Shown: positions 1-41,963, counted from the first letter of the stretch. The stretch: DNA of 41,963 nucleotides from a virus (IMGVR_UViG_2548876958_000014); one strand, 5' to 3'. Translations and numbers: made by a program. The notes: generated by a model from the letters alone, not told the origin.

Positions 1-1719
1 ATGATTTTTAGGGATAGCTTGAGAGTATTACCTTATGGTCGAGTAGATAATGATTTCTTCCAGATAGAAGAAAGACGTTCATGGAATGCAGGGCGATATT
101 ATTGGTCTAATAGAAGGATTTTTGGTTATATTGGAATTACTCAATCCAGTAATAAAGAGCTGAAAGATAAGTCGGGGAGAGAGGGATTCATAAGAAACCA
201 GGCTGCAAGAGAACTGAAAACTATTATATCTAATTTGTTAACTGAACTTGCTGATAGATTTTTTGGTTCACGTTCTGATGACCGTAAAGAGCTTTTAGAA
301 CAAGTTAAGCGTGAAAAAGAGTTAAGAAAATCTGCTCAACAACAAGCTCGAAAATCAACACAAAAAAGTTTTTCAGAAGCTTTGAAGAATCAGACACCAG
401 TTCTTGATGCTTCCTTGGAGGCTGTTAAAAGGCTGAAAACTAAGCTTGATAAAACTGATGGTTCGTTAGATTTAAACTATCTTAAAATTATAGACAGTGA
501 TCTTACAAACTTAGATGCGTTGCGCAGTGAAATTAAAACGCCTATCAAACCTCCAAAACTTGGAATGTATGAAGAGAAATATAGAGACTACAGAGATAAA
601 TTTAATGAGTTCTCTGCGTATATTCTACAAATGAAGTTAGCAATTAATAAACTTGATTCTGAATTAAATAAACTTGAGCCTTCATTGTCAGCGAAAAATC
701 ACCTTGAAAAAAATCAAGGTATTATTAATTCTAAACTAACTAAGTTTAATAACACGATAGAGGAGAAGATACATTCTCTTTTAAAAAAATGGGCCGATGA
801 AATAAAGGTTGATCGAAGTGATTATTATGCTAAAACTATATCAGTTGTTGATTCAATAGATAATGATTCACAAATTGAAAATGTGTTTAATTTGCTCGAT
901 AGTTTATATGTTGAGTCAGTTGATACCCTAACTTTCAAATATCAATCAATAATAAAAGGTCTCGATAGATTATTTGAAGGTATAAACTTAGATTCAGCAT
1001 TCTCATTATCTGAAGAAGAACGCTCATATTTTGAAGAAAAAGCTAAAAGTTTAAACGCGCTTGCACAGTTAGGTATTAGTGTTGAGATAATATCTCATGA
1101 ACTTGAAGAAATGGATTCTATGGTAACCAGAGGACTAAACTCTCTTCCTACTTCTGTAAAAGAACACCCTGGTTTTTCATTGGCGTTAAATGCTCACAGA
1201 TCGCTTACTCAACAAATACGTTTCTTATCACCTTTGAAAATATCAGGTTATCAATCCAGGCAGAGAATAACTGGAAAAAATATCATGGATTATGTCCTGA
1301 AGTTCTTTGGGGAGCGTTTCGAACGGCAACGAATAACTATTGAATTTAGTGAAGAGTTTAAGCAAATCGCAATAACAGATATACCATCAAGGATCTATCC
1401 TGTTTTTACTAATATTATCAACAATGCAATGTATTGGGTCAGTCTGTCAAATAATAGGCTCATAAAGATTGGTTTTGTGAATTCTTTGGTTATCATAGCA
1501 AATTCTGGTCCGGCAATTGATACCGATGATATCCCGCGACTATTTGAACTATTTTATAGCAAAAGAGCAAATGGACATGGGGTAGGTCTGTATCTATGTC
1601 GAGAAAACCTTGCTGTTGCACATCATAAAATATGGTATTCAGAACCTGATGAAGGCGATAACTATTTAATAAAAGATGGCGCTAATTTTGTGATCCAGTT
1701 CAATGGAGTGGAGTTCTAA
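1..1719 (+). CDS. Histidine-kinase-like protein (DHp H-box plus HATPase_c/GHKL ATPase domain), 5' end truncated by window edge
   Basis: ORF open from base 1; H-box-like ISHELEEMDSM; C-terminal N-box-like NIINNAMYW, G1-like DTDDIP, G2-like GHGVGLYLCRE; coiled-coil-rich region before it; AT-rich codon usage. Confidence 0.55.
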   Translation: MIFRDSLRVLPYGRVDNDFFQIEERRSWNAGRYYWSNRRIFGYIGITQSSNKELKDKSGREGFIRNQAARELKTIISNLLTELADRFFGSRSDDRKELLEQVKREKELRKSAQQQARKSTQKSFSEALKNQTPVLDASLEAVKRLKTKLDKTDGSLDLNYLKIIDSDLTNLDALRSEIKTPIKPPKLGMYEEKYRDYRDKFNEFSAYILQMKLAINKLDSELNKLEPSLSAKNHLEKNQGIINSKLTKFNNTIEEKIHSLLKKWADEIKVDRSDYYAKTISVVDSIDNDSQIENVFNLLDSLYVESVDTLTFKYQSIIKGLDRLFEGINLDSAFSLSEEERSYFEEKAKSLNALAQLGISVEIISHELEEMDSMVTRGLNSLPTSVKEHPGFSLALNAHRSLTQQIRFLSPLKISGYQSRQRITGKNIMDYVLKFFGERFERQRITIEFSEEFKQIAITDIPSRIYPVFTNIINNAMYWVSLSNNRLIKIGFVNSLVIIANSGPAIDTDDIPRLFELFYSKRANGHGVGLYLCRENLAVAHHKIWYSEPDEGDNYLIKDGANFVIQFNGVEF

Positions 1720-1720
1720 T

Positions 1721-3469
1721 ATGACAGTGGCAAATTATAATTCTCTTGTCCAGAAAACTTTCTGCGAAAATGTAATTCGTTCCGTTGTCATGATTGATGA
1801 CGATTTTCTGACGTATTCTGAATCAATCAGGGCGTTGAATAACGAAGTTGATTTAGACTACAACAAAATTGACTCATCTAAACGAGCCGCTACTCTTGAG
1901 AGCTTTTTTCAATCTAAAAATATGATTTGTGATGTTGACAATGGTTCTGTTAATTTCGATGTGGATCGGATTAGAAAATCAGATCTTATTATTGTAGATT
2001 ATCATCTTGATAATAATGCACCTGATAAAACACTTAAACTATTACAAGATTTGAAAGACTCCGATCATTTAAATATGATTGTAATATATACTAGAGAGAA
2101 TTTAGAAACGGTTTGGATGCAGATATCATCGACTCTCAAAGGTGCTCTGGATATCAACAGCTTGATCATTGACTACGATAATGAAGATGTCCAAAGTTAT
2201 TGGGAAGACGTTGTATTACCGAACTTAAATGATAATGGTAATAAAGCTCTCACAAGAGATGAAACAATAGCCTATATTAAAGACAGTAAGCCTTGTAGAA
2301 GAATTAAAAGATTAATACATGATGATGCTGTGTTGGAGGATCAAAAGGATAAAAACTTCATTGCAAAAATGATTGCAGAATATGCTGTGTCTAGAAATGC
2401 AATTATTTCTAGCAACACATCTGGCAATGTCATTCGGGGTGATGAAAGCGGAGTAAAATGGATTCAATGTGGTAATATCTTTGTCTCCCTATTTCATAAG
2501 GTTCAAGATGATCATGAAAACGATGGAGATAGAATTTGGCAAACTCTCAATGATTCTCTCATTGAATGGAAACCATCTTATTATCAGTTAATAAAATCTG
2601 AAATTCAGAATGCAATCGAAGCTGAGGCTTTATCTTTTGTAAATCATTTGGCTAACGATCATTACGGTCAAGCTGCGTGGTTAAATGAGATATTAAAATC
2701 AGACTCGCCTGATATTAGATGTAGAAATATTGACTTTGTATTTGGTAATTTATCAGAAGAGCTTTATCAAAGACTTAAAAATAATAATACGCTGGATGAA
2801 TTTATCAAAAGTGTTTTTGATAGCTATTCAAATGAATACGCTAACAGCGGAGTTGCTGCATTGCTCCAATATTGCTCTTCAAAAATGGATCTGCCATCAA
2901 ATAATGATACTTATCACGAAATGTATCATGCTTTAAATATGAATTTGTCTTCAAAGAATTTTGAAGATGGTCATATTTCTACTGGCACTATTTTCTTTGA
3001 TACAGAGTCGAACAAATGGTATTTATGTGTATCTGCGGCATGTGATTTGGTTCCTACTCAGGGTAACGACCCTCACCATGTAAGATTAAGTCCGCACAGG
3101 CTCATTAAAGTTCTGGAGCTTTTTAACGCCAGTCAGAGTAAAGCATTGCCATTTGCTGAACATTCGAAATATATATATGTAATGCATAAAAATCAAAGAA
3201 AATATCTCTCTATTTTCGAAGGGGATAAAACGCTTCCTGTTGTTGATTATATGGTGGTGTTGAATCATGGAACAACAGTTGATGGCGAAGAAAAAAATAT
3301 TATTTCTGCCGTGTTTTTAAGTAATATGGATGGCAACGTGCAAAATGTTCCTGTCCGACTCAAACTTAAATCTCAACTGAGAACTGGTTATGCAGAAAGA
3401 TATCAGGCTATAGCGTCTCAGTATAGCTCAAGGATTGGTGTGGATTATGTATCAATGATGCTACCATAA
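1721..3469 (+). CDS. Receiver (REC)-like N-terminal domain protein with ~450-aa C-terminal domain of unknown function (possible effector)
   Basis: ATG at 1721 two bases after upstream stop (ORF track gives 1703); N-terminal VVMIDDD acidic pair, DLIIVDYHL candidate phospho-acceptor Asp, NMIVIYT beta4 Thr; rest unrecognised. Confidence 0.45.
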   Translation: MTVANYNSLVQKTFCENVIRSVVMIDDDFLTYSESIRALNNEVDLDYNKIDSSKRAATLESFFQSKNMICDVDNGSVNFDVDRIRKSDLIIVDYHLDNNAPDKTLKLLQDLKDSDHLNMIVIYTRENLETVWMQISSTLKGALDINSLIIDYDNEDVQSYWEDVVLPNLNDNGNKALTRDETIAYIKDSKPCRRIKRLIHDDAVLEDQKDKNFIAKMIAEYAVSRNAIISSNTSGNVIRGDESGVKWIQCGNIFVSLFHKVQDDHENDGDRIWQTLNDSLIEWKPSYYQLIKSEIQNAIEAEALSFVNHLANDHYGQAAWLNEILKSDSPDIRCRNIDFVFGNLSEELYQRLKNNNTLDEFIKSVFDSYSNEYANSGVAALLQYCSSKMDLPSNNDTYHEMYHALNMNLSSKNFEDGHISTGTIFFDTESNKWYLCVSAACDLVPTQGNDPHHVRLSPHRLIKVLELFNASQSKALPFAEHSKYIYVMHKNQRKYLSIFEGDKTLPVVDYMVVLNHGTTVDGEEKNIISAVFLSNMDGNVQNVPVRLKLKSQLRTGYAERYQAIASQYSSRIGVDYVSMMLP

Positions 3470-3540
3470 TTATTATATTTTAGGCGTGGTGATTTTTTTT
3501 TGCCATGCCTATTTTATATTTATCATCACAATGATGTTGT

Positions 3541-3957
3541 TTATTTTTGTTTAAGTCTTCTAAGCTTCATGCATTCTAATGAGAATAATAATAGAGTTGT
3601 GCTGTATATAAAGCCAGAGTTAGTTAATAACTTTAAATTTAATGCTTCAGGATTTTCACTGAGAAAGTGAAAGGCATAAACTAAGTATACAGCTAAAGTA
3701 GCCGTTCCAATTGTTGGTCCAATATCGCCTTGATCATGAGGTTCAAGGTTTACATTGAACTTGAAGATTAGCCATTCAAATCCCCAAGTAAAAAAAACAA
3801 CTAATATCATGGCTGCGAATAATTTCGCGATGTTATCTGCTGATGGATTCATCAGAACAGATTGTTTCTGAAAAAATTCACAAAGTGAGAGTCCGAAAAA
3901 AATAAAAAAAAGTGGTCTGGAACTAAATTTTTCAAAAACTTTGAATAGGGTTTCCAT
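3541..3957 (-). CDS. Small hydrophobic (probable inner-membrane) protein
   Basis: 138-aa ORF with several hydrophobic stretches (LFFIFFGLSLCEF, AAMILVVFFTWGFEWLIF, TATLAVYLVYAFHF); AT-rich; convergent with upstream gene. Confidence 0.4.
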   Translation of the reverse strand: METLFKVFEKFSSRPLFFIFFGLSLCEFFQKQSVLMNPSADNIAKLFAAMILVVFFTWGFEWLIFKFNVNLEPHDQGDIGPTIGTATLAVYLVYAFHFLSENPEALNLKLLTNSGFIYSTTLLLFSLECMKLRRLKQK

Positions 3958-3995
3958 TTTCTTTACCTTCAGGATTATATTAGCTATTCTGATAC

Positions 3996-5225
3996 TTAGG
4001 CTACCAGAGCATTTGATCTTTGAGCTTGAACGTAATCACTCCACCATTGCATCAAACTCTGTCGCTCTATCAGATATTCTGCACGATTGTATGCTGCGAT
4101 AATTTCATCTTTTTTCGAGTGGGCAAGCGCTGCCTCAAGAACTTCAGCTCTGAATTTACCAGACTCCTCTGCCGCTGTTCGTGCAATAGAACGCATACCG
4201 TGAGCTACAAGCTCGCCTCCGAACCCCATTCGGATGATAGCTGCGTTGGCTGTTTGTTCATGCATATGATTAAGAGGCGCTTTTATGCTGGGGAAAACCC
4301 ATTCTCTATGCCCACTTATTGATTTCATTAATTCAAGGATGCGCAAAGCTTCTTTACTCAAAGGAACTTTGTGAAGCTTTTTCATTTTCATGAAATCAGC
4401 AGGAATGTTCCAAATGCTGTTGGTTGTATCAATATCAGACCACCTTGCGCGAACGGCTTCACCCGGACGAACCCATGTCAACAATTGCCATTCAATTAGC
4501 ATACGTGTTTCCAACCGGATTGACGCATTCGTCAAAGATTCCATAAACCTTGGCAATTCGCTTGGGGGAAGGGCAGGCATATTTTGCTTTTTTGGTTTAC
4601 TGAATCTTTGACCAAGGTTGTCAGCCGGGTTGAACTCAATAAGTTCTTCAGTAGCTGCCCACCGGAAGATTTCATTCAGACGTGAAATGATACGGCGTAG
4701 AGTTTCCAATACGCCTCGTTGCTCAATAGGATCAAGGTGTTGTTTTAAGAGCTTAGGTCGGATCTCATTGATAGGGACATTACCCAGACCGGGAAAGACA
4801 TTTCTCTCTAAGCTGCGCCAGATGTCTGCTGCATGGTCTTGTGAGATACCTGATGTCTTTACCTTCTCATCTAACCATTTCCGCGCTACGGCTTGGAGAG
4901 TGTGCTCAGTAGCACTCTTTAATGCCTTCGCCTTATCGTTGTTATGGATTTGGGGATCAACACCATTTGCCAGAAAGGAGAGATATTCATCACGTAAGGC
5001 TCTGGCTCTTGCAAGGGTAAGGTGAGGATATGTCCCAAGGCTCATTTTGGTTCTTTTCTTGCTCACTGGTACTGCATACCTGAAATACCAATTTTTCTTG
5101 CCTCCTTTCGCCAAAGGAGCGATTCGTAGAATCAGACCATCACCGTCAAACAAGTTGATTTCTTTATCGGCTGGCTTGGTGCTTTTGATTTCAGTGTCAG
5201 TGAGCTTCTTAGCGATTTTTGCCAT
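3996..5225 (-). CDS. Tyrosine recombinase / integrase, P4-IntA type
   Basis: ORF 3996..5267; likely start MAKIAKKLTDTEIKS at 5225; N-terminal arm-binding region typical of P4/CP4-57 IntA-like integrases; C-terminal catalytic region with HxxR-like AHGMRSIARTAA and Tyr in AYNRAEY; 165 bp from ssrA 3' repeat. Confidence 0.85.
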   Translation of the reverse strand: MAKIAKKLTDTEIKSTKPADKEINLFDGDGLILRIAPLAKGGKKNWYFRYAVPVSKKRTKMSLGTYPHLTLARARALRDEYLSFLANGVDPQIHNNDKAKALKSATEHTLQAVARKWLDEKVKTSGISQDHAADIWRSLERNVFPGLGNVPINEIRPKLLKQHLDPIEQRGVLETLRRIISRLNEIFRWAATEELIEFNPADNLGQRFSKPKKQNMPALPPSELPRFMESLTNASIRLETRMLIEWQLLTWVRPGEAVRARWSDIDTTNSIWNIPADFMKMKKLHKVPLSKEALRILELMKSISGHREWVFPSIKAPLNHMHEQTANAAIIRMGFGGELVAHGMRSIARTAAEESGKFRAEVLEAALAHSKKDEIIAAYNRAEYLIERQSLMQWWSDYVQAQRSNALVA

Positions 5226-5388
5226 TTTGGGACCCTCGGTTTTTGGACCCTTCTGAGTGGGTCCCATTCAGGGTGCCATAACTCGTAGTTCTCAGCAATT
5301 CTCACTGGACGACAATAGACGTAAAAAAGCCCGCAGAGCTTGTGCTGTGTGGGCTTAGTAGACTTCATTGAACTTCAAACAACTAAAA

Positions 5389-5430
5389 AGTGGTGCTGGC
5401 GGGAGTTGAACCCGCGTCCGAAATTCCTAC
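5389..5430. repeat. Direct repeat of the ssrA 3' end (att core; junction between prophage and neighbouring island)
   Basis: 5394..5430 is identical to 40912..40948 (37 bp); preceding TGGTG also matches but the ssrA GAG is missing, so it is a non-functional 3' fragment of tmRNA. Confidence 0.85.
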
Positions 5431-5624
5431 ATACCATTTTTATTATGGTAAAAACAGTAGATTATGTTTGAAAACAATGTGTTAGTGTTATTTTGTATTT
5501 GCTCGTCTTACGCGTTTTTAATGCTCTGCCGCCAAAGTGCCGCCATTACATCAAGTATCTAGAATAAAATTAGTTAATAAATTACAATTAATATGTTAAT
5601 TGTTCTTGCATTCATAAGTGGGAC

Positions 5625-7361
5625 GTGATGAAAGAAAAAAAATTCGTTAGTGAGCTTTTCCTTGAAAATGGGCAGTTTATTTTAGTCGGTTTGACAGGTC
5701 GAACTGGTTCTGGTTGCACAACAACAGCTAATATTCTTGAAAACGAAAAAACAGTCTTCCCTGATGTAAGTAAATTACAGGGGTTTTACAAGGGATTGGA
5801 TGTCCATCGTTATAATATAGTTAAAAAATTCGCAGAAAATCACTGGGAAAATTTTTACTCAATTAAGGTGAGTGACCTAATCTCAGCGTATCTTCTGATG
5901 TTAACAGTTGAGGAAGCTTCTGAATTCATTCTATCATCTAATAAATCTATCAGTAAAGAGCATTTAGATATTGTATTAACTTTTGGTGTATTCTCAGATA
6001 ATCTCATTTTGACAAGATTTAAAAATGTAATTGAGAATTTGCTTGATCATAATAGTGAATTGAAGCTTGATGAAAAAACGATTAATAAATTTATATCAAT
6101 TTTGAAGTTAGTTAGAAAATTTACTAAAGAATTCAAAGCTGAACTAAATGAGATAAACTCAAATTTATATGTTTCAGCCTATCAGTTAGCAGGTAAGTCA
6201 ATTAGACGTCGTGGGCGTATTGAAGTCGATTTTGAAGATAAAGAGTTTATGCCTAAATCTGTTTTTCATTTGCCGGAAACTATTAATAGGGTTATTAAAT
6301 TAATAAGAAAAAGCAAAAGAGATAACGCATTAATTGTCATAGATGCTATTAGAAATCCATATGAGGCAAAATTTTTTAAGGATAGATATTCTGCATTTCA
6401 TTTAATGTCAATAAATGCCCCAGATGAACATCGAACAAACTATTTGCGGAAACTACATAAGTTTTCAGAAAAGCAGATAGAGGAAATAGATTCTGTAGAG
6501 TCAGGTAAAGGTGATAACTCTTACAAACATCTCACCAATCCAAATGTAACTAAATGTATTGAACTATCAGATATACACATTTTTAACCCAAAAAATGAAT
6601 TTGATAATGACAATATTTTAAAAGCACAATTAGCGTGGTACATCGCACTGATGAAGCATCCTGGTCTGATAACACCTACTGCAATGGAAAGGGTTATGCA
6701 AGTTGCGTATACGGTAAAATTAAACTCTGGCTGTATATCTAGACAGGTGGGAGCTGTAGTAACTGATGGTGATAATTCAATAAAATCAGTTGGTTGGAAT
6801 GATGTTGCCAACGGTCAGATTCCTTGCTCTATGAGATCTCTAGATGGCCTAATGAACGATTTTGATGAAAAAACGTACAGTCATTATGAGAGAAATAATA
6901 GTTCTTTCAGAATTAAAGCTAATGAGAAACTCTTAAATTTTAGGGCGATAGATAAAACTGGTGATATTTATAGAGGCAGGAACTTATCTTATTGTTTTAA
7001 AGATATACATAATGATCTTGATAAAGAGAAAAAAGGTAATCAAGTTCATACACGTGCATTACATGCTGAGGAAAACGCATTTTTGCAACTTGCAAAATAT
7101 GGTGGTATTGGCGTTCTGGGGGGGAAGTTGTATACAACTGCCAGTCCCTGTGAGTTGTGTGCGAAAAAAGCTTATCAGTTAGGTATATCTGAAATTGTAT
7201 TTATTGATCCCTACCCAGGTATAGCTCAAGACCATATTATTAATATAGGTAGTAAGCCACCAAAGTTAATACAATTTAGAGGCGCAATTGGGAAGTCATA
7301 TCACCGACTTTATGAGCAAATTATCCCGATAAAAGATGAGTTAGAATATCTCCTTGAGTAG
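5625..7361 (+). CDS. Fusion protein: N-terminal P-loop nucleotide-kinase-like domain + C-terminal cytidine/dCMP deaminase zinc-binding domain (resembles anti-phage dCTP deaminase architecture)
   Basis: N-terminal GLTGRTGSGCTTTANIL (CoaE/dNK-like P-loop with Cys where Lys is expected); C-terminal HAEENAF and SPCELCAKKA (H-A-E ... P-C-x-x-C deaminase zinc motifs); AT-rich; sits between att repeat and P2-type int. Confidence 0.6.
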   Translation: MMKEKKFVSELFLENGQFILVGLTGRTGSGCTTTANILENEKTVFPDVSKLQGFYKGLDVHRYNIVKKFAENHWENFYSIKVSDLISAYLLMLTVEEASEFILSSNKSISKEHLDIVLTFGVFSDNLILTRFKNVIENLLDHNSELKLDEKTINKFISILKLVRKFTKEFKAELNEINSNLYVSAYQLAGKSIRRRGRIEVDFEDKEFMPKSVFHLPETINRVIKLIRKSKRDNALIVIDAIRNPYEAKFFKDRYSAFHLMSINAPDEHRTNYLRKLHKFSEKQIEEIDSVESGKGDNSYKHLTNPNVTKCIELSDIHIFNPKNEFDNDNILKAQLAWYIALMKHPGLITPTAMERVMQVAYTVKLNSGCISRQVGAVVTDGDNSIKSVGWNDVANGQIPCSMRSLDGLMNDFDEKTYSHYERNNSSFRIKANEKLLNFRAIDKTGDIYRGRNLSYCFKDIHNDLDKEKKGNQVHTRALHAEENAFLQLAKYGGIGVLGGKLYTTASPCELCAKKAYQLGISEIVFIDPYPGIAQDHIINIGSKPPKLIQFRGAIGKSYHRLYEQIIPIKDELEYLLE

Positions 7362-7741
7362 AAATATTATACTCATCCTTCCTGAGGTAAGCTTCAAGAT
7401 GATCAATAAATATTGATCATCTTGAAAGTTAATTGCAGAGTCAAACTAGTAGTCAGACTGAAGCTTCGATAAAAAATGTTTTTGTTTTTTTCATTTTCTA
7501 ATGACTGTTTTTTATTGGTTTCTTTTTAATGTTGCAATGCTATGCTTTTCTACTATTTTTGAATGTGGCATCTTTGATGTTTTTATACAACAAAGATGAG
7601 GGCTTATAGGTTTTTTTGTGATGTAAAAATTATCTTATTCTATAAATAAAACCTAAACTCAGTCTGAAGAGTTAAATGAGAATGGATAACCTGCTGAATA
7701 TTATATTTGTAAATAGTTTGAGTTTGTTTTCATAAGTTACT

Positions 7742-8758
7742 CTATCTTAAGTTGCATAAAGGGTTTTTAGTTACCGCATCTTCAAGGTGATCGGGCGAAA
7801 AGTGGGCGTAAATCATCGTCATTTTTATATCGGCATGGCCCAGAATATCGCGCAGCACCAGTATGTTTCCGCCATTCATCATAAAATGGCTGGCGAATGT
7901 ATGACGTAGCACGTGAGTGCATTGGCCCTCTGGCAGCTCGATGCCAGCTCGCTTTACTGCTCGTTCAAAGGCTTTTCTGCACGGGGTGAATAGCTTCCCT
8001 CTGTTCTTGGGGAGTTCGTCATACAGATCTTGAGATATCGGCACGGTGCGGTTTTTCTTACCCTTCGTCTTGGTATAAGTGATGCGGTATTTAGATAACT
8101 GATGGCCCTGCAGGTTTTCAGCTTCACTCCAGCGTGCGCCGGTGGCCAGGCATATTTTTGCAATCAAAAGCAGACTGGGGTTTTGAGAATCAGCGCAGGC
8201 ATCTAGCAGACGTTTAATTTCTTCCGAGGTCAGGAACGCCAGTTCCCCCTCAGCGATTTTAAATGTTGGCAGCCCGGCGAGAGGATTTGGTGCTGACCAG
8301 TGGCCTAGTTTTTTCAATGTGCCGAAAACCGATGATAGGTTACGTTGCTCAAGATTCACCGTGCGTGGTTTTACTGGCGACATTAGTGTGCCGTCTTCGT
8401 TACGAACGTCACCTTTTAACCGTGCTTCGCGGTATTTCGTAAAGTCACCGGCTGTCAGTTCTGAGGCGATGGGGTCGCCTAGACCATTACAGATAATTCT
8501 AAGTTTCGCCATGAGGCGCTTGGGGTCTGCGAGTGTCTGACCATACAGGGAATACCAAAGCTCAATTAATTCTGATAGGCGTCGCCGATCATCCTTTTCA
8601 CCCAACCACGGTTTTTTATTCACTTCTTCCATTGTGAAGCTTTCAAAAGCAATGGCTTCGCCTTTCGTAGCAAATTGCTTACGCACGCGCTTACCATTGC
8701 GTCCATTGGGATAGCACTCACACAACCATTTTCCGTTCGGCTGTTTTCTGATGGTCAT
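7742..8758 (-). CDS. int: P2/186-type tyrosine integrase
   Basis: 338 aa, matching the ~337-aa P2/186 integrases; conserved stretches CLATGARWSEAE, KYRITYTKTKGKKNRTVPIS, VLRHTFASHFMMNGGNILVL, MTMIYAHF; followed by repressor gene in same orientation. Confidence 0.9.
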   Translation of the reverse strand: MTIRKQPNGKWLCECYPNGRNGKRVRKQFATKGEAIAFESFTMEEVNKKPWLGEKDDRRRLSELIELWYSLYGQTLADPKRLMAKLRIICNGLGDPIASELTAGDFTKYREARLKGDVRNEDGTLMSPVKPRTVNLEQRNLSSVFGTLKKLGHWSAPNPLAGLPTFKIAEGELAFLTSEEIKRLLDACADSQNPSLLLIAKICLATGARWSEAENLQGHQLSKYRITYTKTKGKKNRTVPISQDLYDELPKNRGKLFTPCRKAFERAVKRAGIELPEGQCTHVLRHTFASHFMMNGGNILVLRDILGHADIKMTMIYAHFSPDHLEDAVTKNPLCNLR

Positions 8759-8759
8759 A

Positions 8760-9392: not shown

Positions 9393-9404
9393 TTTTTAAT
9401 CCTG

Positions 9405-9456: not shown

Positions 9457-9511
9457 AAGTAAAACGAGATAAAACGACGTAAACCAAACCTTAATCGGGA
9501 GATACTGCACT

Positions 9512-9754: not shown

Positions 9755-9786
9755 GTTCAATTATGAGAACTTTCTAAGGGGGTAGC

Positions 9787-32410: not shown

Positions 32411-32431
32411 CCCCGGTTTTTATTCAGGGGA

Positions 32432-33004: not shown

Positions 33005-33146
33005 ATCAGCATTATTTTGATTTTTCCTGCAAGCGGACAAATACCGTTATTTTGTGTGAATAACGGTACAACTGCGCTTAGCTGTTTGTCAGGCACAATC
33101 ACTTCAACATAGGGCGAAGCCTAATCCAATCAGGAGGTTCGCCACT

Positions 33147-34319
33147 ATGGCTCAGGATTACCACCACGGGGTGCGCGTTGTTGAAGTCAACGAAGGCACC
33201 CGATCCATTACCACGGTGAGCACCGCCATCGTGGGTATGGTCTGCACGGGCGATGATGCCGATGCAAAAATGTTTCCTCTTAATAAACCCGTGCTGATCA
33301 CTGATGTGCTGACTGCCAGCGGTAAAGCGGGTGAGTCCGGCACGCTGGCACGTTCGCTGGATGCCATCGCTGACCAGGCAAAACCCGTGACCGTTGTTGT
33401 GCGTGTGCCGCAGGGTGAAACGGAAGAAGAAACCACGACCAATATCATCGGCGCAGTGACTGCTGAAGGTAAAAAAACAGGCATGAAAGCCCTGTTATCT
33501 GCCCAGACACAGCTCGGCGTTAAACCGCGCATTCTCGGCGTGCCAGGTCACGATAACAAAGCCGTTGCTACTGAGTTGCTGAGTGTGGCGCAAAGCCTGC
33601 GTGGGTTTGCTTACCTGTCAGCGTATGGCTGCAAGACGGTGCAGGAGGCGATCACTTACCGTGAAAACTTCAGCCAGCGCGAAGGAATGCTGATCTGGCC
33701 CGACTTTACTGGCTGGGACACGGTGCTGAATGCCGAAGCAACGGCATATGCCACCGCCCGTGCGCTTGGTCTGCGTGCCAAAATTGATGAGCAGACCGGA
33801 TGGCACAAAAGCCTGTCCAACGTGGGCGTGAACGGTGTCACCGGAATTTCTGCAGATGTGTTCTGGGATCTGCAGGACCCGGCAACCGATGCAGGTCTGC
33901 TGAACCAGAACGACGTCACCACGCTTGTGCGTAAAGACGGTTTCCGCTTCTGGGGTTCCCGCTGCCTGAGTGATGACCCGCTCTTTGCCTTCGAAAACTA
34001 CACCCGCACGGCGCAGGTGCTGACGGACACAATGGCAGAAGCGCACATGTGGGCAGTGGACAAACCGCTGAACCCGTCGCTGGCCCGCGACATTATCGAA
34101 GGTATCCGCGCCAAAATGCGCAGCCTGGTCAGTCAGGGGTATCTCATTGGTGGTGATTGCTGGCTGGATGAGTCGGTGAACGATAAAGACACGCTGAAAG
34201 CCGGGAAGCTCACCATTGACTACGACTACACGCCAGTGCCGCCACTTGAAAACCTGATGCTGCGTCAGCGCATCACCGATCAGTACCTGGTGAATTTTGC
34301 CAGCCAGGGCAGCGCGTAA
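33147..34319 (+). CDS. FI: Tail sheath protein gpFI
   Basis: 390 aa; position and length as P2 FI. Confidence 0.85.
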
Positions 34320-34328
34320 GGGGACAAC

Positions 34329-34844
34329 ATGGCTTTACCACGCAAATTAAAACATCTGAACCTGTTTAACGACGGGAACAACTGGCAGGGGATCGTTGAG
34401 TCGCTGACACTGCCGAAATTCACCCGCAAATATGAGAAGTATCGCGGCGGCGGAATGCCGGGTGCAGTGGATGTGGATCTGGGACTTGATGACAGTGCTC
34501 TGGACACAGAATTTTCCATTGGTGGTACTGAACTGCTGCTGTTTAAGCAGATGGGCAAAGCCACTGTGGATGGCATCCAGTTGCGCTTTACCGGCTCTAT
34601 CCAGCGTGACGATACCGGAGAAGTGCAGGCCGTAGAGCTTGTAGTGCGTGGGCGTCACAAAGAAGTGGATTCCGGTGAGTGGAAGACGGGCGAAAGCAAC
34701 ACCACCAAAGTGACCAGCACTAACAGCTACGCGAAGCTGACAATCAATGGTGAGGTGCTCTATGAAGTGGACCTCATCAACATGGTGGAAATCGTGGACG
34801 GTGTGGACCTGATGGAAGCACACCGTAACGCCCTCGGCCTCTGA
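34329..34844 (+). CDS. FII: Tail tube protein gpFII
   Basis: 171 aa immediately after sheath. Confidence 0.85.
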   Translation: MALPRKLKHLNLFNDGNNWQGIVESLTLPKFTRKYEKYRGGGMPGAVDVDLGLDDSALDTEFSIGGTELLLFKQMGKATVDGIQLRFTGSIQRDDTGEVQAVELVVRGRHKEVDSGEWKTGESNTTKVTSTNSYAKLTINGEVLYEVDLINMVEIVDGVDLMEAHRNALGL

Positions 34845-34898
34845 TGTATCTGAACGGCGCGGAATACCGCGCCAGAACCTAATTTACAGGACAGCAAA

Positions 34899-35201
34899 AT
34901 GAGCGATAAGCAGACTGAAAAGACCATTCAACTGGATACCCCTATCAAGCGTGGTAAAACAGAAATCACCGAAATTGTGCTGCGCAAACCGCATTCCGGT
35001 GCGCTGCGCGGTACACGCCTGCAGGCGATTATGGATATGGATGTGAACGCGATGATGACCGTGATCCCCCGCATCTCCAGCCCGGCACTGACTGCACAGG
35101 AAATTGCAGAGATGGACCCGGCAGATCTCACTGCCATGTCGGTTGAGGTTGTCACTTTTTTGTTGAAGAAGTCGGTGCTTGCCGGTTTACCGACAGCCTG
35201 A
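34899..35201 (+). CDS. E: Tail assembly chaperone gpE
   Basis: 100 aa ending shortly after a TTTTTTG slippery heptamer. Confidence 0.75.
   Translation: MSDKQTEKTIQLDTPIKRGKTEITEIVLRKPHSGALRGTRLQAIMDMDVNAMMTVIPRISSPALTAQEIAEMDPADLTAMSVEVVTFLLKKSVLAGLPTA
35156..35162 (+). other. Programmed -1 ribosomal frameshift site producing gpE+E' (extended product ends ~35331)
   Basis: T TTT TTG with TTT/TTG in the E frame; -1 frame reads VEEVGACRFTDSLTVDDLVADIATIFHWPP...RSGANDE and stops at the TGA overlapping the tape-measure ATG (35328). Confidence 0.65.
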
Positions 35202-35327
35202 CGGTTGACGATCTGGTGGCAGATATCGCCACCATTTTTCACTGGCCGCCATCCGTTACTGACGTTATGCCGCTGACCGAAGTGCTGGAATGGCGGTATA
35301 AAGCGATTCAGAGAAGCGGGGCCAACG

Positions 35328-38300
35328 ATGAGTGATAACAACCTGCGTCTGCAGGTCATTCTTAATGCGGTTGACAAGCTCACCCGCCCATTTCGATCTG
35401 CGCAGGCCAGTTCAAGAGAACTGGCTGCTGTTGTCAAAAAATCCCGCGATGCAATAAAGCAGCTTGATCAGGCCGGGAGCAGTCTGGACAGCTTCCGAAA
35501 GCTGCAGGCAGAAAATCAGAAATTAGGCGACAGGCTGAACTATGCCCGCCAGCGTGCAAATTTGCTCAGTCAGGAACTGGGAGCGATGGGGCCGCCTTCG
35601 CAACGTCAGGTTGTTGCTCTGGGCCGTCAACGGCTGGCTGTTCAGCGCCTGGAAGAACGCCAGAAAAAGCTGCAGCAGCAGACGGCGCTTGTGCGTGCTG
35701 AACTGTACCGGGCGGGAATTTCTGCGAAAGACGATGCGGGAGCAACTGCCCGTTTAGCCCGTGAAACATCACGTTATAACCAGGAACTGTCGAAACAGGA
35801 GGCGCGGCTGAAGCGACTGGGGGAAGCTCAGCGCAGGATGAATGCAGCGCGTGCCAGTTATGCCCGTTCGCTGGAGGTGCGCGATCGCATCGCAGGAGCC
35901 GGAGCCACCACCACGGCTGCAGGGCTGGCAATGGGGACGCCAGTGATGGCGGCAGTAAAAAGCTATACCAGCATGGAAGATGCCATGAAAGGTGTGGCAA
36001 AGCAGGTCAATGGTCTGCGTGACGATAATGGCAACCGCACTGCACGTTTTTATGAAATGCAGGATGCCATCAAAGCTGCCAGCGAACAGTTGCCGATGGA
36101 AAACGGTGCGGTGGACTTCGCTGCACTGGTTGAAGGTGGTGCGCGCATGAACGTCGCAAATCCTGACGACAGCTGGGAAGACCAGAAACGTGACCTGCTG
36201 GCCTTCGCCAGTACGGCGGCGAAGGCGGCAACAGCCTTTGAGCTGCCAGCGGATGAACTGTCAGAAAGTCTGGGGAAAATCGCCCAGCTCTACAAAATAC
36301 CTACCCGCAATATTGAACAGCTCGGTGATGCGCTGAACTATCTGGATGATAACGCAATGTCGAAAGGGGCAGACATCATCGATGTGATGCAACGTCTGGG
36401 CGGTGTGGCTGACCGTCTCGATTATCGTAAAGCGGCGGCGCTGGGTTCCACCTTCCTGACTCTGGGTGCTGCGCCGGAGGTTGCAGCCAGTGCAGCAAAC
36501 GCGATGGTGCGTGAATTGTCCATTGCCACCATGCAAAGCAAGAGTTTCTTTGAAGGGATGAATCTGCTGAAACTCAATCCTGAAGTGATTGAAAAGCAGA
36601 TGACGAAGGATGCGATGGGAACTATCCAGCGTGTGCTGGAGAAGGTGAAGGCGCTGCCGCAGGACAAGCGTCTGTCTGCCATGACCATGTTGTTTGGCAA
36701 AGAGTTTGGCGATGACGCGGCGAAACTGGCAAACAACCTGCCGGAACTGCAGCGCCAGCTAAAACTGACAGCGGGCAATGATGCGCTCGGTTCCATGCAG
36801 AAAGAATCCGACATCAACAAAGACTCACTTTCTGCTCAGTGGTTGCTGGTCAAAACCGGAACGCAGAACACCTTCAGTAGCCTGGGCGAAACGCTGCGCC
36901 AGCCGCTGATGGATATTCTGTACACGGTGAAAAGTGTTACGGGAGCGTTGCGTCGCTGGGTGGAAGCTAACCCGGAACTGACGGGCACACTGATGAAAGT
37001 AGCCGCTATTGTGGCTGCGGTTACCGTAGGCCTCGGCACCTTAGCGGTGGCGCTGGCTGCAGTGCTGGGGCCGCTGGCAGTCATCCGTCTGGGATTCTCT
37101 GTGCTGGGTATCAAAACGTTATCTTCCGTTACGGCAGCAGTAACACGAACCAGCAGCGCGTTGTCCTGGTTAGCTGGCGCTCCACTGGCACTGCTGCGAC
37201 GCGGGCTTGCTTCATCGGGCAACGCAGCGGGTTTACTTACTGCGCCGTTGTCGTCTTTGCGCCGCACGGCATCACTGACGGGGAATGTCCTGAAAACTGT
37301 AGCAGTTGTGCCGGTTGCACTGTTGCGGTCTGGATTATCCGGTTTACGTGCTGTTGCTGTGATGTTTATGAATCCACTGGCAGCACTACGCGGTGGACTG
37401 GCTGCCGCAGGCTCGGTGCTGCGAGTACTGGCATCCGGTCCGCTGGCGATGCTGCGCGTTGCCCTGTATGCCATATCTGGTCTGTTAGGTGCTCTGCTCA
37501 GTCCGATAGGTCTTGTGGTTACTGCACTGGCGGGCGTGGCGCTGGTTGTCTGGAAATACTGGCAACCCATCACCGCATTTCTCGCTGGTGTGGTGGAAGG
37601 ATTCAAAGCGGCGGCAGGTCCCATCAGTGCAGCATTCGAACCACTTAAGCCTGTGTTTCAGTGGATTGGCGACAAAGTGCAGGCGTTGTGGGGCTGGTTT
37701 ACTGATCTGCTGACGCCCGTTAAGTCGACCTCTGCCGAACTGCAGAGCGCAGCGGCAATGGGGCGACGATTCGGGGAGGCACTGGCGGAAGGGCTGAATA
37801 TGGTCATGCATCCGCTGGACTCCCTGAAATCCAGCGTTTCCTGGTTGCTGGAAAAACTCGGCATTGTCAGTAAAGAGGCTGCAAAGGCGAAACTGCCGGA
37901 AAGAGTGACGCGTCAGCAACCTGCGACGGTGAATGCAGACGGTAAAGTGATGATGCCATCGGGTGGTTTTCCGTCATGGGGATATGGCTTTGCGGGGATG
38001 TATGACAGCGGCGGCTATATCCCGCGCGGGCAGTTTGGCATCGTCGGTGAAAACGGGCCGGAAATTGTTAACGGCCCGGCAAATGTGACCAGCCGGAGAA
38101 ATACAGCTGCACTGGCTGCCGTTGTTGCCGGAATGATGGGCGTTGCTGCCGCGCCTGCAGAGCTTCCACCGTTGCATCCTTTGGCACTTCCCGCGAAAGG
38201 CGGCGAAGCGATGGTGAGTCGTGCAGCCACTGTGCCGCCCGTTCACCGGATTGAGGCACCGACGCAGATCATCATTCAGACGCAGCCAGGACAAAGTGCG

Positions 38301-38405
38301 CAGGATATTGCGCGGGAGGTAGCACGCCAGCTTGATGAACGTGAACGCAGGCTGAAGGCAAAAGCCAGGAGTAACTACAGCGATCAGGGGGGATACGACG
38401 CATGA
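35328..38405 (+). CDS. T: Tail tape measure protein gpT
   Basis: 1025 aa; N-terminal coiled coil, Ala/Gly/Leu-rich hydrophobic repeats in the middle; position after E/E'. Confidence 0.85.
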   Translation: MSDNNLRLQVILNAVDKLTRPFRSAQASSRELAAVVKKSRDAIKQLDQAGSSLDSFRKLQAENQKLGDRLNYARQRANLLSQELGAMGPPSQRQVVALGRQRLAVQRLEERQKKLQQQTALVRAELYRAGISAKDDAGATARLARETSRYNQELSKQEARLKRLGEAQRRMNAARASYARSLEVRDRIAGAGATTTAAGLAMGTPVMAAVKSYTSMEDAMKGVAKQVNGLRDDNGNRTARFYEMQDAIKAASEQLPMENGAVDFAALVEGGARMNVANPDDSWEDQKRDLLAFASTAAKAATAFELPADELSESLGKIAQLYKIPTRNIEQLGDALNYLDDNAMSKGADIIDVMQRLGGVADRLDYRKAAALGSTFLTLGAAPEVAASAANAMVRELSIATMQSKSFFEGMNLLKLNPEVIEKQMTKDAMGTIQRVLEKVKALPQDKRLSAMTMLFGKEFGDDAAKLANNLPELQRQLKLTAGNDALGSMQKESDINKDSLSAQWLLVKTGTQNTFSSLGETLRQPLMDILYTVKSVTGALRRWVEANPELTGTLMKVAAIVAAVTVGLGTLAVALAAVLGPLAVIRLGFSVLGIKTLSSVTAAVTRTSSALSWLAGAPLALLRRGLASSGNAAGLLTAPLSSLRRTASLTGNVLKTVAVVPVALLRSGLSGLRAVAVMFMNPLAALRGGLAAAGSVLRVLASGPLAMLRVALYAISGLLGALLSPIGLVVTALAGVALVVWKYWQPITAFLAGVVEGFKAAAGPISAAFEPLKPVFQWIGDKVQALWGWFTDLLTPVKSTSAELQSAAAMGRRFGEALAEGLNMVMHPLDSLKSSVSWLLEKLGIVSKEAAKAKLPERVTRQQPATVNADGKVMMPSGGFPSWGYGFAGMYDSGGYIPRGQFGIVGENGPEIVNGPANVTSRRNTAALAAVVAGMMGVAAAPAELPPLHPLALPAKGGEAMVSRAATVPPVHRIEAPTQIIIQTQPGQSAQDIAREVARQLDERERRLKAKARSNYSDQGGYDA

Positions 38406-38887
38406 TGATGGTGCTGGGATTGTACGTGTTTATGCTGAGCACCGTTCCGTATCAGGAACTGCAGTATCAACGCAACTGGCGACATGCGGCAAACAGCCGG
38501 GTAAACCGTCGTCCGTCCACGCAGTTTCTGGGACCGGACAACGACATGCTGACGCTTTCTGGTGTTCTTATGCCGGAGATAACGGGCGGCAGGCTGTCGT
38601 TGCTGGCTCTGGAGCAGATGGCAGAACAGGGAAAAGCATGGCCCCTGATTGAAGGCAGCGGCACGATTTACGGCATGTATGTGATTGAGGGACTGAATCA
38701 GACTAAAACGGAGTTTTTCCGCGATGGTATGCCGCGCCGGATTGAGTTTACCCTGTCGCTCAAACGTGTGGATGAATCCCTGTCCGATATGTTCGGTGAT
38801 CTCAGTGCGCAGCTGAATAATTTGCAGGATACGGCAACGTCTGCCTTAAGCGATATCAGTAAAACGGTGGGAGGGCTACTGTCGTGA
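38402..38887 (+). CDS. U: Tail protein gpU
   Basis: 161 aa; overlaps T stop and D start as in P2. Confidence 0.8.
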   Translation: MMMVLGLYVFMLSTVPYQELQYQRNWRHAANSRVNRRPSTQFLGPDNDMLTLSGVLMPEITGGRLSLLALEQMAEQGKAWPLIEGSGTIYGMYVIEGLNQTKTEFFRDGMPRRIEFTLSLKRVDESLSDMFGDLSAQLNNLQDTATSALSDISKTVGGLLS

Positions 38888-39984
38888 ATTTCAGCTCTGA
38901 ACTGCTTAACAAAGGCAACAAAACTCCCGCATTCAGCATCAGTATTGAGGGGAAGGATATCACCACTGTGCTGGATAACCGCCTGATGAGTCTGACGTTG
39001 ACGGACAATCGGGGCTTTGAAGCAGACCAGCTTGATCTGGAGCTGGACGACGCCGACGGAAAAATCGTGCTGCCGCGCCGTGGTGCGGTCATCACGCTGG
39101 CGCTGGGCTGGAAGGGGCAGCCGCTTTTCCCGAAAGGGGCATTCACGGTGGACGAGATTGAACACACTGGCGCACCGGATCGCCTGACTATCCGGGCGCG
39201 AAGTGCTGATTTTAGGGAAACGCTGAATACCCGCCGTGAAAAATCGTGGCACAAGACCACCGTCGGGGAAGTGGTGAAGGAAATAGCCGCGCGGCACAAG
39301 CTGAAGATGGCACTGGGTAAAGACCTGTCGGATAAGCCCGTGGAACATATAGACCAGACCAATGAGAGTGACGGCAGTTTTCTGATGCGGCTGGCGCGCC
39401 AGTACGGTGCTATTGCGTCGGTGAAAAATGGCAATCTGTTATTCATCCGGCAGGGACAGGGCAAAAGCGCCAGCGGTAAACCTCTGCCGGTGATCACTAT
39501 CACACGCAAGGACGGCGACAGTCACCGCTTTACCCTGGCAGATCGCGGAGCCTATACGGGCGTAATTGCCAGTTGGTTGCATACCCGCGAACCCGCGAAG
39601 AAAGAAAGCACCGCGGTGAAGCGTAAGCGCAGGACTAAGAAGCAGAAGAAAGAGCCGGAAGCGAAGCAGGGCGATTACCTGGTGGGTACGGATGAAAACG
39701 TGCTGGTACTTAATCGCACCTATGCTAATCGGAGTAACGCCGAACGGGCAGCGAAAATGCAGTGGGAACGCCTGCAACGCGGCGTTGCGTCATTCTCGCT
39801 ACAACTGGCGGAAGGTCGGGCAGATCTCTACACGGAAATGCCAGTGAAAGTCAGTGGCTTTAAACAGCCGATAGATGATGCGGAATGGACCATTACGACT
39901 CTGACACATACCGTCAGCCCGGATAACGGTTTTACAACCAGTATTGAACTCGAAGTGAAGATTGATGATCTTGAAATGGAATAA
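38884..39984 (+). CDS. D: Tail protein gpD (late control gene D)
   Basis: 366 aa; N-terminus typical of P2 gpD; lysine-rich internal segment. Confidence 0.85.
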   Translation: MNFSSELLNKGNKTPAFSISIEGKDITTVLDNRLMSLTLTDNRGFEADQLDLELDDADGKIVLPRRGAVITLALGWKGQPLFPKGAFTVDEIEHTGAPDRLTIRARSADFRETLNTRREKSWHKTTVGEVVKEIAARHKLKMALGKDLSDKPVEHIDQTNESDGSFLMRLARQYGAIASVKNGNLLFIRQGQGKSASGKPLPVITITRKDGDSHRFTLADRGAYTGVIASWLHTREPAKKESTAVKRKRRTKKQKKEPEAKQGDYLVGTDENVLVLNRTYANRSNAERAAKMQWERLQRGVASFSLQLAEGRADLYTEMPVKVSGFKQPIDDAEWTITTLTHTVSPDNGFTTSIELEVKIDDLEME

Positions 39985-40052
39985 TGTGTTCTCAATATTG
40001 ATATTTTATGTATCATTACAATGATTCTGATAGCAAAGGTAGGGATCTGGAT

Positions 40053-40271
40053 ATGATGAATTGTCCGAAGTGTGGTCATGCGGCGCACACAAGGAGCAGT
40101 TTTCAAGTAACAGAAAGCACCAAAGAGCGTTACTGCCAGTGCCAAAATATTAACTGCGGGAGCACTTTTGTTACCCATGAAACAGTGGTCCGGTTTATTG
40201 TGACACCTGCATTGATTGCTACAGCCCCTCCACATCCATTGCCAGGTGGTCAGGGGCATATGAATTTTTGA
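40053..40271 (+). CDS. ogr: Ogr/Delta-family zinc-finger late-gene activator
   Basis: 72 aa from MMNCPKCGHAAHTRSS; C-x2-C ... C-x4-C (CPKC ... CQCQNINC); matches P2 Ogr in length and motif spacing. Confidence 0.85.
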   Translation: MMNCPKCGHAAHTRSSFQVTESTKERYCQCQNINCGSTFVTHETVVRFIVTPALIATAPPHPLPGGQGHMNF

Positions 40272-40297
40272 GAAAGAGAACCTGCTACGGCAGGTTT

Positions 40298-40780
40298 TTA
40301 TTCATCTGGGATCTCACCCGTTTCAAGAAAATGTATAAAGCCAGGCTCATCTATGATGATTGTGCCTTTCATCCTGGCTGCCGATACTTTTGATGGGCCT
40401 GCATTGTAACCGCAACAGAGCATCTGAAGGCTTTGGGTTACAGAGGTTCTTACCGTTAATCCTTGTTCATTCGCCTTATCAACCAATCTTTCTTTATCTG
40501 CTTTCTTAAATCCGGTGAAGCACACATCGAATGTATTTTTTTTCGGACCAGACTGCTTAGTGAGATGTGAGTAGTTTTCGGGGAGGAATGACGCGCATTC
40601 CTGAATGGCTTGTTCTGGTGAATCGTACTGTTTAAGAATGCGGTCTTTTCGGAAGGTTTTTATTCGATCGGTGTTCTTACAAATGCCCTGTATATGATTT
40701 TCGCTATAACTGATGCTCTGTATTGAGTGAACACCGATACGACCATTTGCATTGATGTAAACAAAGTGAAGTTCTTCCAT
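40298..40780 (-). CDS. Small two-domain protein: N-terminal WYL-like domain + C-terminal BRCT-like domain (prophage cargo)
   Basis: 160 aa; TFRKDRI matches the WYL hallmark (R-x-F-R-x-D-R-I); C-terminal FDVCFTGF ... GTIIIDEPGFIHFLE resembles a BRCT fold; lies between ogr and attR, where P2 has no gene. Confidence 0.45.
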   Translation of the reverse strand: MEELHFVYINANGRIGVHSIQSISYSENHIQGICKNTDRIKTFRKDRILKQYDSPEQAIQECASFLPENYSHLTKQSGPKKNTFDVCFTGFKKADKERLVDKANEQGLTVRTSVTQSLQMLCCGYNAGPSKVSAARMKGTIIIDEPGFIHFLETGEIPDE

Positions 40781-40860
40781 GTGAAACCTCTTTGCATGAT
40801 TTCAAGATGGCGACAGGCAAGATGGACGCAAAAGTCTGTCGCCATTTTGCCGCCACTACC

Positions 40861-40893
40861 AAAGAAAAAGGGGCTACGCTTTCACGTAACCCC
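40861..40893 (-). terminator. Rho-independent terminator downstream of ssrA
   Basis: On minus strand: GGGGTTACG-TGAAAG-CGTAGCCCC stem-loop followed by TTTTTCTTT, starting ~10 nt after the tmRNA 3' end. Confidence 0.5.
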
Positions 40894-40903
40894 TTGATTT
40901 ATT

Positions 40904-41266
40904 TGGTGGAGCTGGCGGGAGTTGAACCCGCGTCCGAAATTCCTACATCCTCGGTACTACATGCTTAGTCAGTCTTTACATTCGCTTGCCAGCTGCGGAC
41001 GGACACGCCACTAACAAACTAGCCTGATTAAGTTTTAACGCTTCAACCCCAGGCAGGGCTTCCACGCGATCTCTTTTGGGTTTGACCTCTCTTGATCCCC
41101 GTCCTAAGAGCGGAGGCTAGGGAGAGAGGGCTCTAAGCAGGTTATTAAGCTGCTAAAGCGTAGTTTTCGTCGTTTGCGACTATTTTTTGCGGCTTTTTAC
41201 GAGGCCAACCGCCCCTCGGCATGCACCTTGGGTTTCGCAAATCCCGTCGAATCCAGAATCAGCCCC
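40904..41266 (-). ncRNA. ssrA: tmRNA (SsrA), complete
   Basis: Reverse complement begins GGGGCTGATTCTGGATTCGACGGG and ends ...GGTTCAACTCCCGCCAGCTCCACCA; contains tag ORF GCAAACGACGAAAACTACGCTTTAGCAGCTTAA (ANDENYALAA); 363 nt. Confidence 0.95.
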
Positions 41267-41480
41267 AATGTGTAAAGGTAAGTATACCAGATTTATGAGC
41301 GCCATGACCAGCCTCAATGGCGTTATCGTTAAAGATTTAGCACCCATGTAGCCTGATTTTTATTCGATTAAGCAATGGGATGGCAACATTTGTGTCGGAT
41401 GTGATAGCCAATAAGATGTTCATTCGCGCCGCCGGAGAGGGAGGCGCGGTGAGGAACTGGTCAATAATTGGAGTGCAGGT

Positions 41481-41963
41481 TTAACGGTGGGCGTTTTTCA
41501 TGATACGTGCTTTATCCACCTGCCATTCGCGTTCTTTGATATCTGAACGTTTATCGTGCTGTTTTTTACCTTTGGCGACGCCGATTTTCACTTTGCACCA
41601 GGCATTTTTCCAGTACAGGGAGAGCGCCACTACGGTATAGCCTTCTCGATTGACGCGACCGTACAATGAGTCCAGTTCGCGCTGGTTGAGAAGTAACTTG
41701 CGGGTACGGGTAGGATCGCACACCACATGCGTGGAGGCCACGGCCATTGGCGTGATGTTAGCGCCAAACAGAAATGCCTCTCCGTCACGCAGAAGGACGT
41801 AGCTGTCGCTGATATTGGCTTTTCCTGCGCGCAGGGATTTAACCTCCCAGCCTTGCAGGGCAAGTCCCGCTTCGAACTCTTCTTCGATAAAGTATTCGTG
41901 ACGGGCGCGCTTGTTAAGCGCGATGGTCGCTGAACCAGGTTTATGTGCTTTTTTCTTCGTCAT
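41481..41963 (-). CDS. smpB: SsrA-binding protein SmpB
   Basis: 160 aa ([28 protein letters not shown]...) matching enterobacterial SmpB; start codon is the last three bases of the window; upstream of ssrA in the same orientation. Confidence 0.95.

Follow-up and report, generated by a model that had tools for sequence, protein, structure and literature searches.

Gene content and base composition of the window

We analyzed a stretch of 41,963 nucleotides (nt) from the viral record IMGVR_UViG_2548876958_000014 (hereafter the window; positions are counted from its first letter), in which a sequence-only reading had seen three AT-rich islands set in a phage backbone, coinciding with three candidate defence loci and supporting independent acquisition of each. 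Two mobile elements lie in tandem in the window, both integrated at ssrA of an E. coli chromosome: on the left an older integrase island, on the right a P2/Fels-2-like prophage. Its three AT-rich troughs very likely mark accessory cassettes from an AT-rich, recombination-swapped pool, and not the signatures of separate donors. The genes and boundaries concerned are listed here (aa, amino acids; att, attachment site; GC, guanine-plus-cytosine fraction; ORF, open reading frame; L001, annotated prophage of VG888-46E9; L004, a relative with an intact copy of the island).

1-1719, plus strand: histidine kinase (HK)-like ORF of 572 aa with HEF_HK and HATPase_c domains (Pfam); GC 0.336
1721-3469, plus strand: receiver-like protein, Response_reg_2 followed by ~400 aa of unknown fold; GC 0.342
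3541-3957, minus strand: 138-aa hydrophobic hypothetical protein, an ORF conserved in L004; GC 0.321
3996-5267, minus strand: tyrosine integrase of the older ssrA island (Pfam Arm-DNA-bind_3, Phage_int_M and Phage_integrase), adjoining ssrA in L004; GC 0.451
5390-5432, direct repeat: left att core of the prophage, i.e. the displaced ssrA 3' end and former junction of the older island
5433-40905, between the ssrA repeats: P2/Fels-2-like prophage of 35.5 kb (Peduoviridae, Felsduovirus-like)
5433-5547: conserved phage att arm, homology with L002, L003, L008 and L011 reaching 5545-5553
5548-7741, plus strand: att-int cargo cassette, delimited by homology breakpoints between the att core and the int 3' end; GC 0.32
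5625-7361, plus strand: anti-phage dCTP deaminase of 578 aa, sole gene of this cassette (PADLOC dCTPase, 1.1e-145)
7742-8758, minus strand: prophage integrase of P2/Fels-2 type (Pfam Int_N and Phage_integrase; called integrase in L001)
12188-15188, plus strand: gpA replication endonuclease, a small ORF and a DinI-like gene, left hotspot flank (L001 annotation; NCBIfam DinI)
15419-18290, plus strand: gpA-portal ('TO' region) cargo cassette, delimited by breakpoints between the DinI-like gene and the portal gene; GC 0.32-0.34
15498-16577, plus strand: LmuA, Cap4 (DUF4297) nuclease (Pfam PF14130, 1.4e-33; PADLOC 4e-143, profile positions 1-356 of 361)
16567-18225, plus strand: LmuB, SMC-like ATPase (PADLOC 6.1e-253, full length; Walker A GTNDVGKS at residue 34)
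18266-19300, minus strand: portal gpQ, right hotspot flank (annotation of a near-identical prophage)
40904-41266, minus strand: ssrA (tmRNA; ARAGORN), its 3' end at 40906-40948 being the right att core
41481-41963, minus strand: smpB, chromosomal flank adjoining ssrA; GC 0.516

Base composition was determined by a sliding-window GC profile and by unsupervised optimal partition (Bernoulli likelihood, 20-bp resolution). The partition placed breakpoints at 4000, 5420, 7760, 15440 and 18380, flanking the three troughs, and yielded the following segments.

1-4000: GC 0.336
4001-5420: GC 0.456
5421-7760: GC 0.318
7761-15440: GC 0.489
15441-18380: GC 0.318
18381-30440: GC 0.563
30441-33160: GC 0.474
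33161-39820: GC 0.559
39821-41960: GC 0.469

The best single split gained 404 units of log-likelihood, compared to at most 7.5 across 200 shuffles. Thus, the troughs (GC 32-34%, compared to ~56% in the phage late genes) are real, and the boundaries previously placed by eye at 3960, 5430, 7740, 15420 and 18260 were recovered within 20-120 bp. GC at third codon positions (GC3) was 0.24-0.28 in all five large cargo genes, compared to 0.57-0.69 in late phage genes and 0.57 in smpB. Relative synonymous codon usage (RSCU) correlated negatively between cargo and backbone genes and positively among cargo genes (r = 0.64-0.87). The integrase at 3996-5267 (GC ~0.45) sits between troughs 1 and 2. The backbone, described as GC-balanced, is itself layered: GC is ~0.42-0.53 in the early and immunity region and ~0.47 in both the tail-fibre/invertase module and the ogr-ssrA end. 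The match of the troughs to three candidate defence loci is supported in part. All three are accessory cassettes, and the dCTP deaminase and Lamassu are recognized as defence systems; locus 1, in contrast, matches no defence model.

Two tandem elements at ssrA

A 43-nt direct repeat of the ssrA 3' end occurs at 5390-5432 and 40906-40948 (42/43 identical), and the same repeat was found at the same place in five relatives. The DNA between the two copies contains int, CI, a cox-like gene, Dam methylase, gpA, a DinI-like gene, portal, terminase, capsid, lysis, baseplate, tail fibre, sheath/tube, tape measure, D and ogr. These genes were named from an ORF map together with the RefSeq annotation of the VG888-46E9 prophage, which is 99.85% identical over 5390-30758 and 98% identical over 30978-41963. 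The P2-type core is present in P2 order (int, CI, cox-like, gpA, Q-P-O-N-M-L, tail genes, D, ogr), and among the records of the phage collection the nearest ones belong to Peduoviridae of Fels-2/RE-2010 type (92-96% identical).

The older island extends from position 1 to ~5389, and its integrase directly abuts the displaced ssrA end. The presence of this separate integrase to the left of the repeat, next to a second ssrA end, means that the window holds two tandem elements and not one phage with three inserts. Locus 1 is not phage cargo: it sits on the older ssrA island, outside the prophage. From this arrangement we infer the order of events. The integrase island would have occupied ssrA first, and the P2/Fels-2-like prophage would later have integrated into the ssrA 3' end, pushing the island and the old ssrA end (5390-5432) away from the ssrA gene.

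The phage-borne cassettes occupy known P2-like hotspots

The dCTP deaminase of the att-int cassette scored 425.4 bits with the NCBIfam equivalog NF041025 (cut-off 400). The zinc-site motifs HAE (residue 480) and PCELC (residue 508) are intact, Pfam gives a dCMP_cyt_deam_1 match (1.6e-14), and the allele is only ~75% identical at the DNA level to an E. coli AW1.7 gene annotated as anti-phage dCTP deaminase. Such deaminases were reportedly described as anti-phage systems by Tal and colleagues in 2022. Like the members of NF041025, the protein is a single-gene system that passes the equivalog cut-off and keeps the zinc motifs, with activity predicted; by homology, it would deplete dCTP on infection.

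Homology to relatives with other att-int cargo breaks at 5545-5553 and 7747-7757. Six distinct cargos were found in this slot. Relatives carry a divergent dCTP deaminase allele, a 327-aa ORF, a 506-aa ORF, a 401-aa ORF or a pair of ORFs (300 and 403 aa). The int-att interval is a minor defence hotspot that accounts for 3% of P2 systems (2026 survey of 3574 P2-like prophages, PMC13586616), and Felsduovirus prophages carry defence systems at dedicated positions (PMC10121019). The cassette shares its position, from att core to int 3' end, and the integration into ssrA with this hotspot, with the Felsduovirus prophages at E. coli hotspot #29 (PMC10121019) and with RE-2010/Fels-2. In the Salmonella phage RE-2010, att (1-84) is followed by a 401-aa ORF and then int, and AbiU is also carried; the occupant here, in contrast, is an anti-phage dCTP deaminase.

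The cassette between gpA and the portal gene encodes a type I Lamassu. Its two genes overlap and specify the Cap4 nuclease LmuA and the SMC-like LmuB, as in type I Lamassu (Doron 2018; bioRxiv 10.1101/2025.06.23.660979). There is no LmuC: the ORF map of 15189-18265 contains no ORF of at least 80 aa besides lmuA and lmuB. The type I Lamassu that has been studied is from Bacillus, whereas the version in the window is enterobacterial and phage-borne, with protection predicted only. Published structures suggest that in type I Lamassu an LmuB dimer keeps monomeric LmuA inactive, and that sensing of DNA ends releases LmuA to form the active tetrameric nuclease (bioRxiv 10.1101/2025.06.23.660979). 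By homology, the LmuB dimer encoded here would hold the LmuA nuclease inactive until DNA ends are sensed.

Homology to relatives with other gpA-portal cargo breaks at 15186 or 15417 on the left and at 18291 or 18357 on the right, so that the last 8-30 codons of the portal gene travel with the cassette. Eight distinct cargos were found in this slot. The relatives carry AbiU/AIPR, PD-T7-1, a DUF262 and HEPN pair, a P-loop NTPase (PDC-S49), a helicase-like pair, a trio with TIGR04255 and XRE, or three unknown ORFs. The gpA-gpQ interval is the main P2 defence hotspot, the classical tin/old region (Rousset et al. 2022, PMC9122126; NAR 2026, PMC13586616). The site in the window is the same, from the replication and DinI-like genes to the portal gene, with unrelated cassettes between conserved flanks. 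There is no difference in kind; the member here is a two-gene Lamassu with a Cap4 nuclease.

Relatives combine the cassettes differently

Among 5426 complete E. coli genomes, the island locus was present in 560, this dCTP deaminase allele in 20, and Lamassu in this slot in 11; the slot flanks were present in 1310. Individual relatives combine the three loci differently.

VG888-46E9: left island absent; att-int slot, dCTP deaminase; gpA-portal slot, Lamassu
CV839-06: left island absent; att-int slot, dCTP deaminase; gpA-portal slot, other cargo
GF47: left island absent; att-int slot, other cargo; gpA-portal slot, Lamassu
WGI31CT: left island present; att-int slot, other cargo; gpA-portal slot, other cargo (PD-T7-1 among its slot cargo)
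600468: left island present; att-int slot, divergent dCTP deaminase allele

The comparison with P2-like prophages showed other cargo in the same slots, with homology breaks that match the GC breakpoints.

The Lamassu cassette (15419-18265) is 99.3-99.4% identical to the copies in Klebsiella pneumoniae phage Kp4845-2, a P2-like prophage, and in E. coli GF47 (L007, L011). For the adjoining gpA, DinI-like and portal genes of Kp4845-2 and GF47, in contrast, identity drops to 95-97% (Fisher p = 6e-19 and 3e-16). Since the identity of the cassette exceeds that of its flanks, the cassette moved between diverged backbones after these had split. Lamassu is accordingly the younger part and the backbone the older one, which indicates a recent exchange of the cassette across genera. 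No identity excess was detected for the dCTP deaminase cassette in comparison with CV839-06 (96.7%, flanks 97-98%).

In VG888-46E9 both cassettes are 100% identical to those of the window, and the prophage adjoins ypjA instead of the island. The genome 01G17CRGN001 also carries both cassettes, ~6 kb apart. Because the two cassettes lie within a single att-bounded prophage, and the identical pair recurs in VG888-46E9 in another chromosomal context, they would represent one acquisition event for the host. Both phage-borne cassettes most probably entered this chromosome together on one phage.

Origin of the low GC content

The AT-richness of the cargo has three candidate causes: descent from foreign low-GC DNA, AT-biased drift under weak codon selection within a fast-moving accessory pool, and selection for silencing by H-NS. 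H-NS prefers AT-rich, horizontally acquired DNA. If low GC were selected in this way, H-NS binding would keep potentially toxic abortive-infection cargo silent in the lysogen, and an infecting phage that disturbs H-NS or the nucleoid might perhaps release it. A GC content of ~0.32-0.37 that recurs in unrelated gene families, in both slots, in both element types and in three or more host genera is consistent with such selection, as are the sharp GC boundaries with the backbone. However, AT-rich accessory genes are general on mobile elements, where AT-biased mutation and weak codon selection provide neutral causes, and one cargo at GC 0.42 makes this a loose rule. Moreover, promoter-like sites in the two phage cassettes were no more frequent than in shuffled sequences. 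A terminator scan of the same cassettes gave no convincing moron promoter-terminator pair, just a hairpin between lmuB and the portal gene. We regard selection by H-NS as unlikely. If it were true, composition itself would be part of the control of prophage abortive-infection systems.

The proposal that the AT-rich islands entered as separate imports, each from a low-GC donor, with the troughs as evidence of three independent events, draws on the sharpness of the troughs, on their match to the cassette boundaries and on the different population frequencies of the three loci (560, 20 and 11 genomes). However, the islands are inseparable by dinucleotide signature or codon usage: Karlin delta* was 44-69 between islands, compared to 66-102 between the halves of one island, and the RSCU correlations of gene pairs from different islands equal those of pairs from the same island. 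The composition is equally compatible with one source or a common pool. The six att-int cargos have a GC of 0.315-0.345 and the eight gpA-portal cargos of 0.338-0.422, with flanks at 0.45-0.53. Low GC thus identifies the islands as accessory DNA but not as independent, because the islands are compositionally alike and all alternative cargo of the slots is AT-rich as well. The cassette GC is also unchanged in Klebsiella, Salmonella and Serratia-type hosts, and the island operon stays at a GC of 0.35 in a host with smpB and recN at 0.54-0.58. In addition, the dCTP deaminase and Lamassu lie within one att-bounded prophage and co-occur in VG888-46E9 and 01G17CRGN001. We consider three separate imports improbable. 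As hotspot cargo forms a single compositional class, a GC trough cannot count acquisition events. GC therefore does not show the independent acquisition that it had been taken to support; the independence itself is shown by the comparative mosaicism.

That the troughs are chance fluctuations or an artefact of inspection by eye has practically no probability and is already refuted by the likelihood gain over shuffled sequences and by the GC3 gap of 0.3-0.4 between cargo and backbone.

The older island carries a probably truncated kinase operon

HEF_HK and Response_reg_2 proteins form a two-component-like pair linked to restriction-modification systems, C5 methylases and paraMORC ATPases (Bellieny-Rabelo et al. 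2021, PMC8011034). The HK-like ORF of the window corresponds to residues 417-988 of a 988-aa paraMORC-kinase, i.e. to the 3' 58% of the gene. The full-length protein occurs in Klebsiella, Serratia and Salmonella (99% identical) and has an N-terminal MORC-type HATPase_c_3 module, which the window ORF lacks. In the intact island L004, which is 98.9% identical to window positions 1-5431, the order is C5 methylase, 988-aa kinase, receiver protein, 138-aa ORF, integrase and ssrA-smpB. The methylase lies directly upstream of the kinase, and the three-gene operon is intact at L004 6812-12717. The island also carries a relaxase and is found in other Enterobacterales. E. coli relatives with 99.9-100% identity to the window share one junction, at which the end of an IS3 element abuts codon 377 of the kinase gene. 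The C5 methylase is absent from the E. coli relatives L002 and L003; the corresponding stretch of L003 is 2842-3001.

The HK-like ORF is very probably a 5'-truncated remnant, as the relatives strongly suggest; because the window begins at an internal ATG, the truncation is deduced and not observed. The island would carry the last two genes of a C5-methylase/paraMORC-histidine-kinase/receiver-protein operon. Compared to the described HEF_HK/Response_reg_2 pairs (PMC8011034), the domains and their adjacency are the same, and the intact relative has the upstream C5 methylase and HATPase_c_3. The copy in the window, in contrast, lacks the MORC-type ATPase module and, judged from the relatives, the methylase. 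With its kinase truncated, locus 1 is probably inactive, or at least incomplete.

PADLOC returned no match for the HK-like, receiver-like or 138-aa ORFs, nor for the full-length 988-aa homologue. NCBIfam likewise gave nothing for the three ORFs, the 138-aa ORF had no Pfam family match, and a sequence search of the PDB with the receiver-like protein was negative. Residues D26, D27 and D93 of the receiver are conserved. A PDB match of residues 77-131 of the HK-like ORF to colicin E9 DNase reached E values of only 0.14-0.9 and was taken as chance. The defensive two-component system Detocs was also considered and rejected: there was no PADLOC match, and the intact operon of methylase, MORC-kinase and receiver differs from it. 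A literature search found no published defence phenotype for the HEF_HK/Response_reg_2 family.

Other features of the prophage

A DNA adenine methylase gene (11274-12191) lies directly upstream of gpA and is conserved in all relatives examined. Mosaic breakpoints among the relatives were also seen in the immunity region (8758-9499; CI and cox-like gene, GC 0.42-0.44) and at a spot in the Fil-like region (10435-10468).

Inverted repeats of 27 nt (30541-30567 and 32356-32382; 85% complementary, gix/cix-like) enclose an invertible tail-fibre host-range segment. This contains a tail-fibre assembly gene (31593-32036, minus strand) and an alternative fibre C-terminus (32036-32410, minus strand). Next to the repeats lies a serine invertase (32432-33004), and with a GC of 0.474 the module 30541-33004 forms a dip of its own. 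Only the fibre tip (30759-30977) is unmatched in the VG888 prophage.

Between ogr and the right att, inside the prophage, lies an ORF of 160 aa (40298-40780, minus strand; GC 0.416) with a Pfam BRCT match below the curated cut-off (1.1e-3) and a weak match to the C-terminal part of PDC-S48; it is called a BRCT protein in relatives. The segment 39985-40905 was covered to at least 80% in 170 of the 5426 genomes and may be a fourth accessory slot.

Discussion

In our reading, the older island and the prophage stand in tandem at ssrA, and their AT-rich cassettes were taken from a common, recombination-swapped pool. Several observations weigh against this reading or parts of it. None of the complete E. 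coli genomes covers at least 80% of window positions 1-8800. The window starts exactly at the internal ATG of the 572-aa ORF, and only the E. coli relatives show the IS3 junction and the lost methylase. About 10% of complete E. coli genomes retain the pair of truncated kinase and receiver at 99.7% identity or more; such conservation may point to residual function instead of decay. The dCTP deaminase has an N-terminal P-loop-like motif (GRTGSGCT, residues 25-32) with Cys at the position of Lys in G....GK[ST], and the mechanisms proposed for the deaminase and for Lamassu are carried over from homologues. Finally, when the dCTP deaminase was compared by tblastn with 50,697 phage records, no isolated phage proved to carry a close homologue (best match 27-31% identical). 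That virions package the att-int cassette we infer solely from where the att boundaries lie and from phage records of possibly prophage origin (L007 is marked 'UNVERIFIED').

The occurrence of AT-rich cassettes in hotspots of P2/Fels-2-like prophages and on an ssrA island is already-described biology and not new. The low GC of P2 morons was described in the older P2 literature. Two papers on the hotspots (PMC13586616, PMC9122126) make no statement on the GC of hotspot cargo.

The findings have little general importance but are useful for annotation, as they fix the element boundaries and recognize two ssrA elements rather than one phage. Two defence systems are assigned to published P2-like hotspots, and the third locus to a very probably truncated remnant of an uncharacterized operon. 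The intact operon of the island in L004 and the receiver C-terminal domain, which is without a recognized fold, are reasonable targets for defence discovery. As to method, the analysis carries a caution: a GC trough flags accessory DNA but gives no count of acquisitions.

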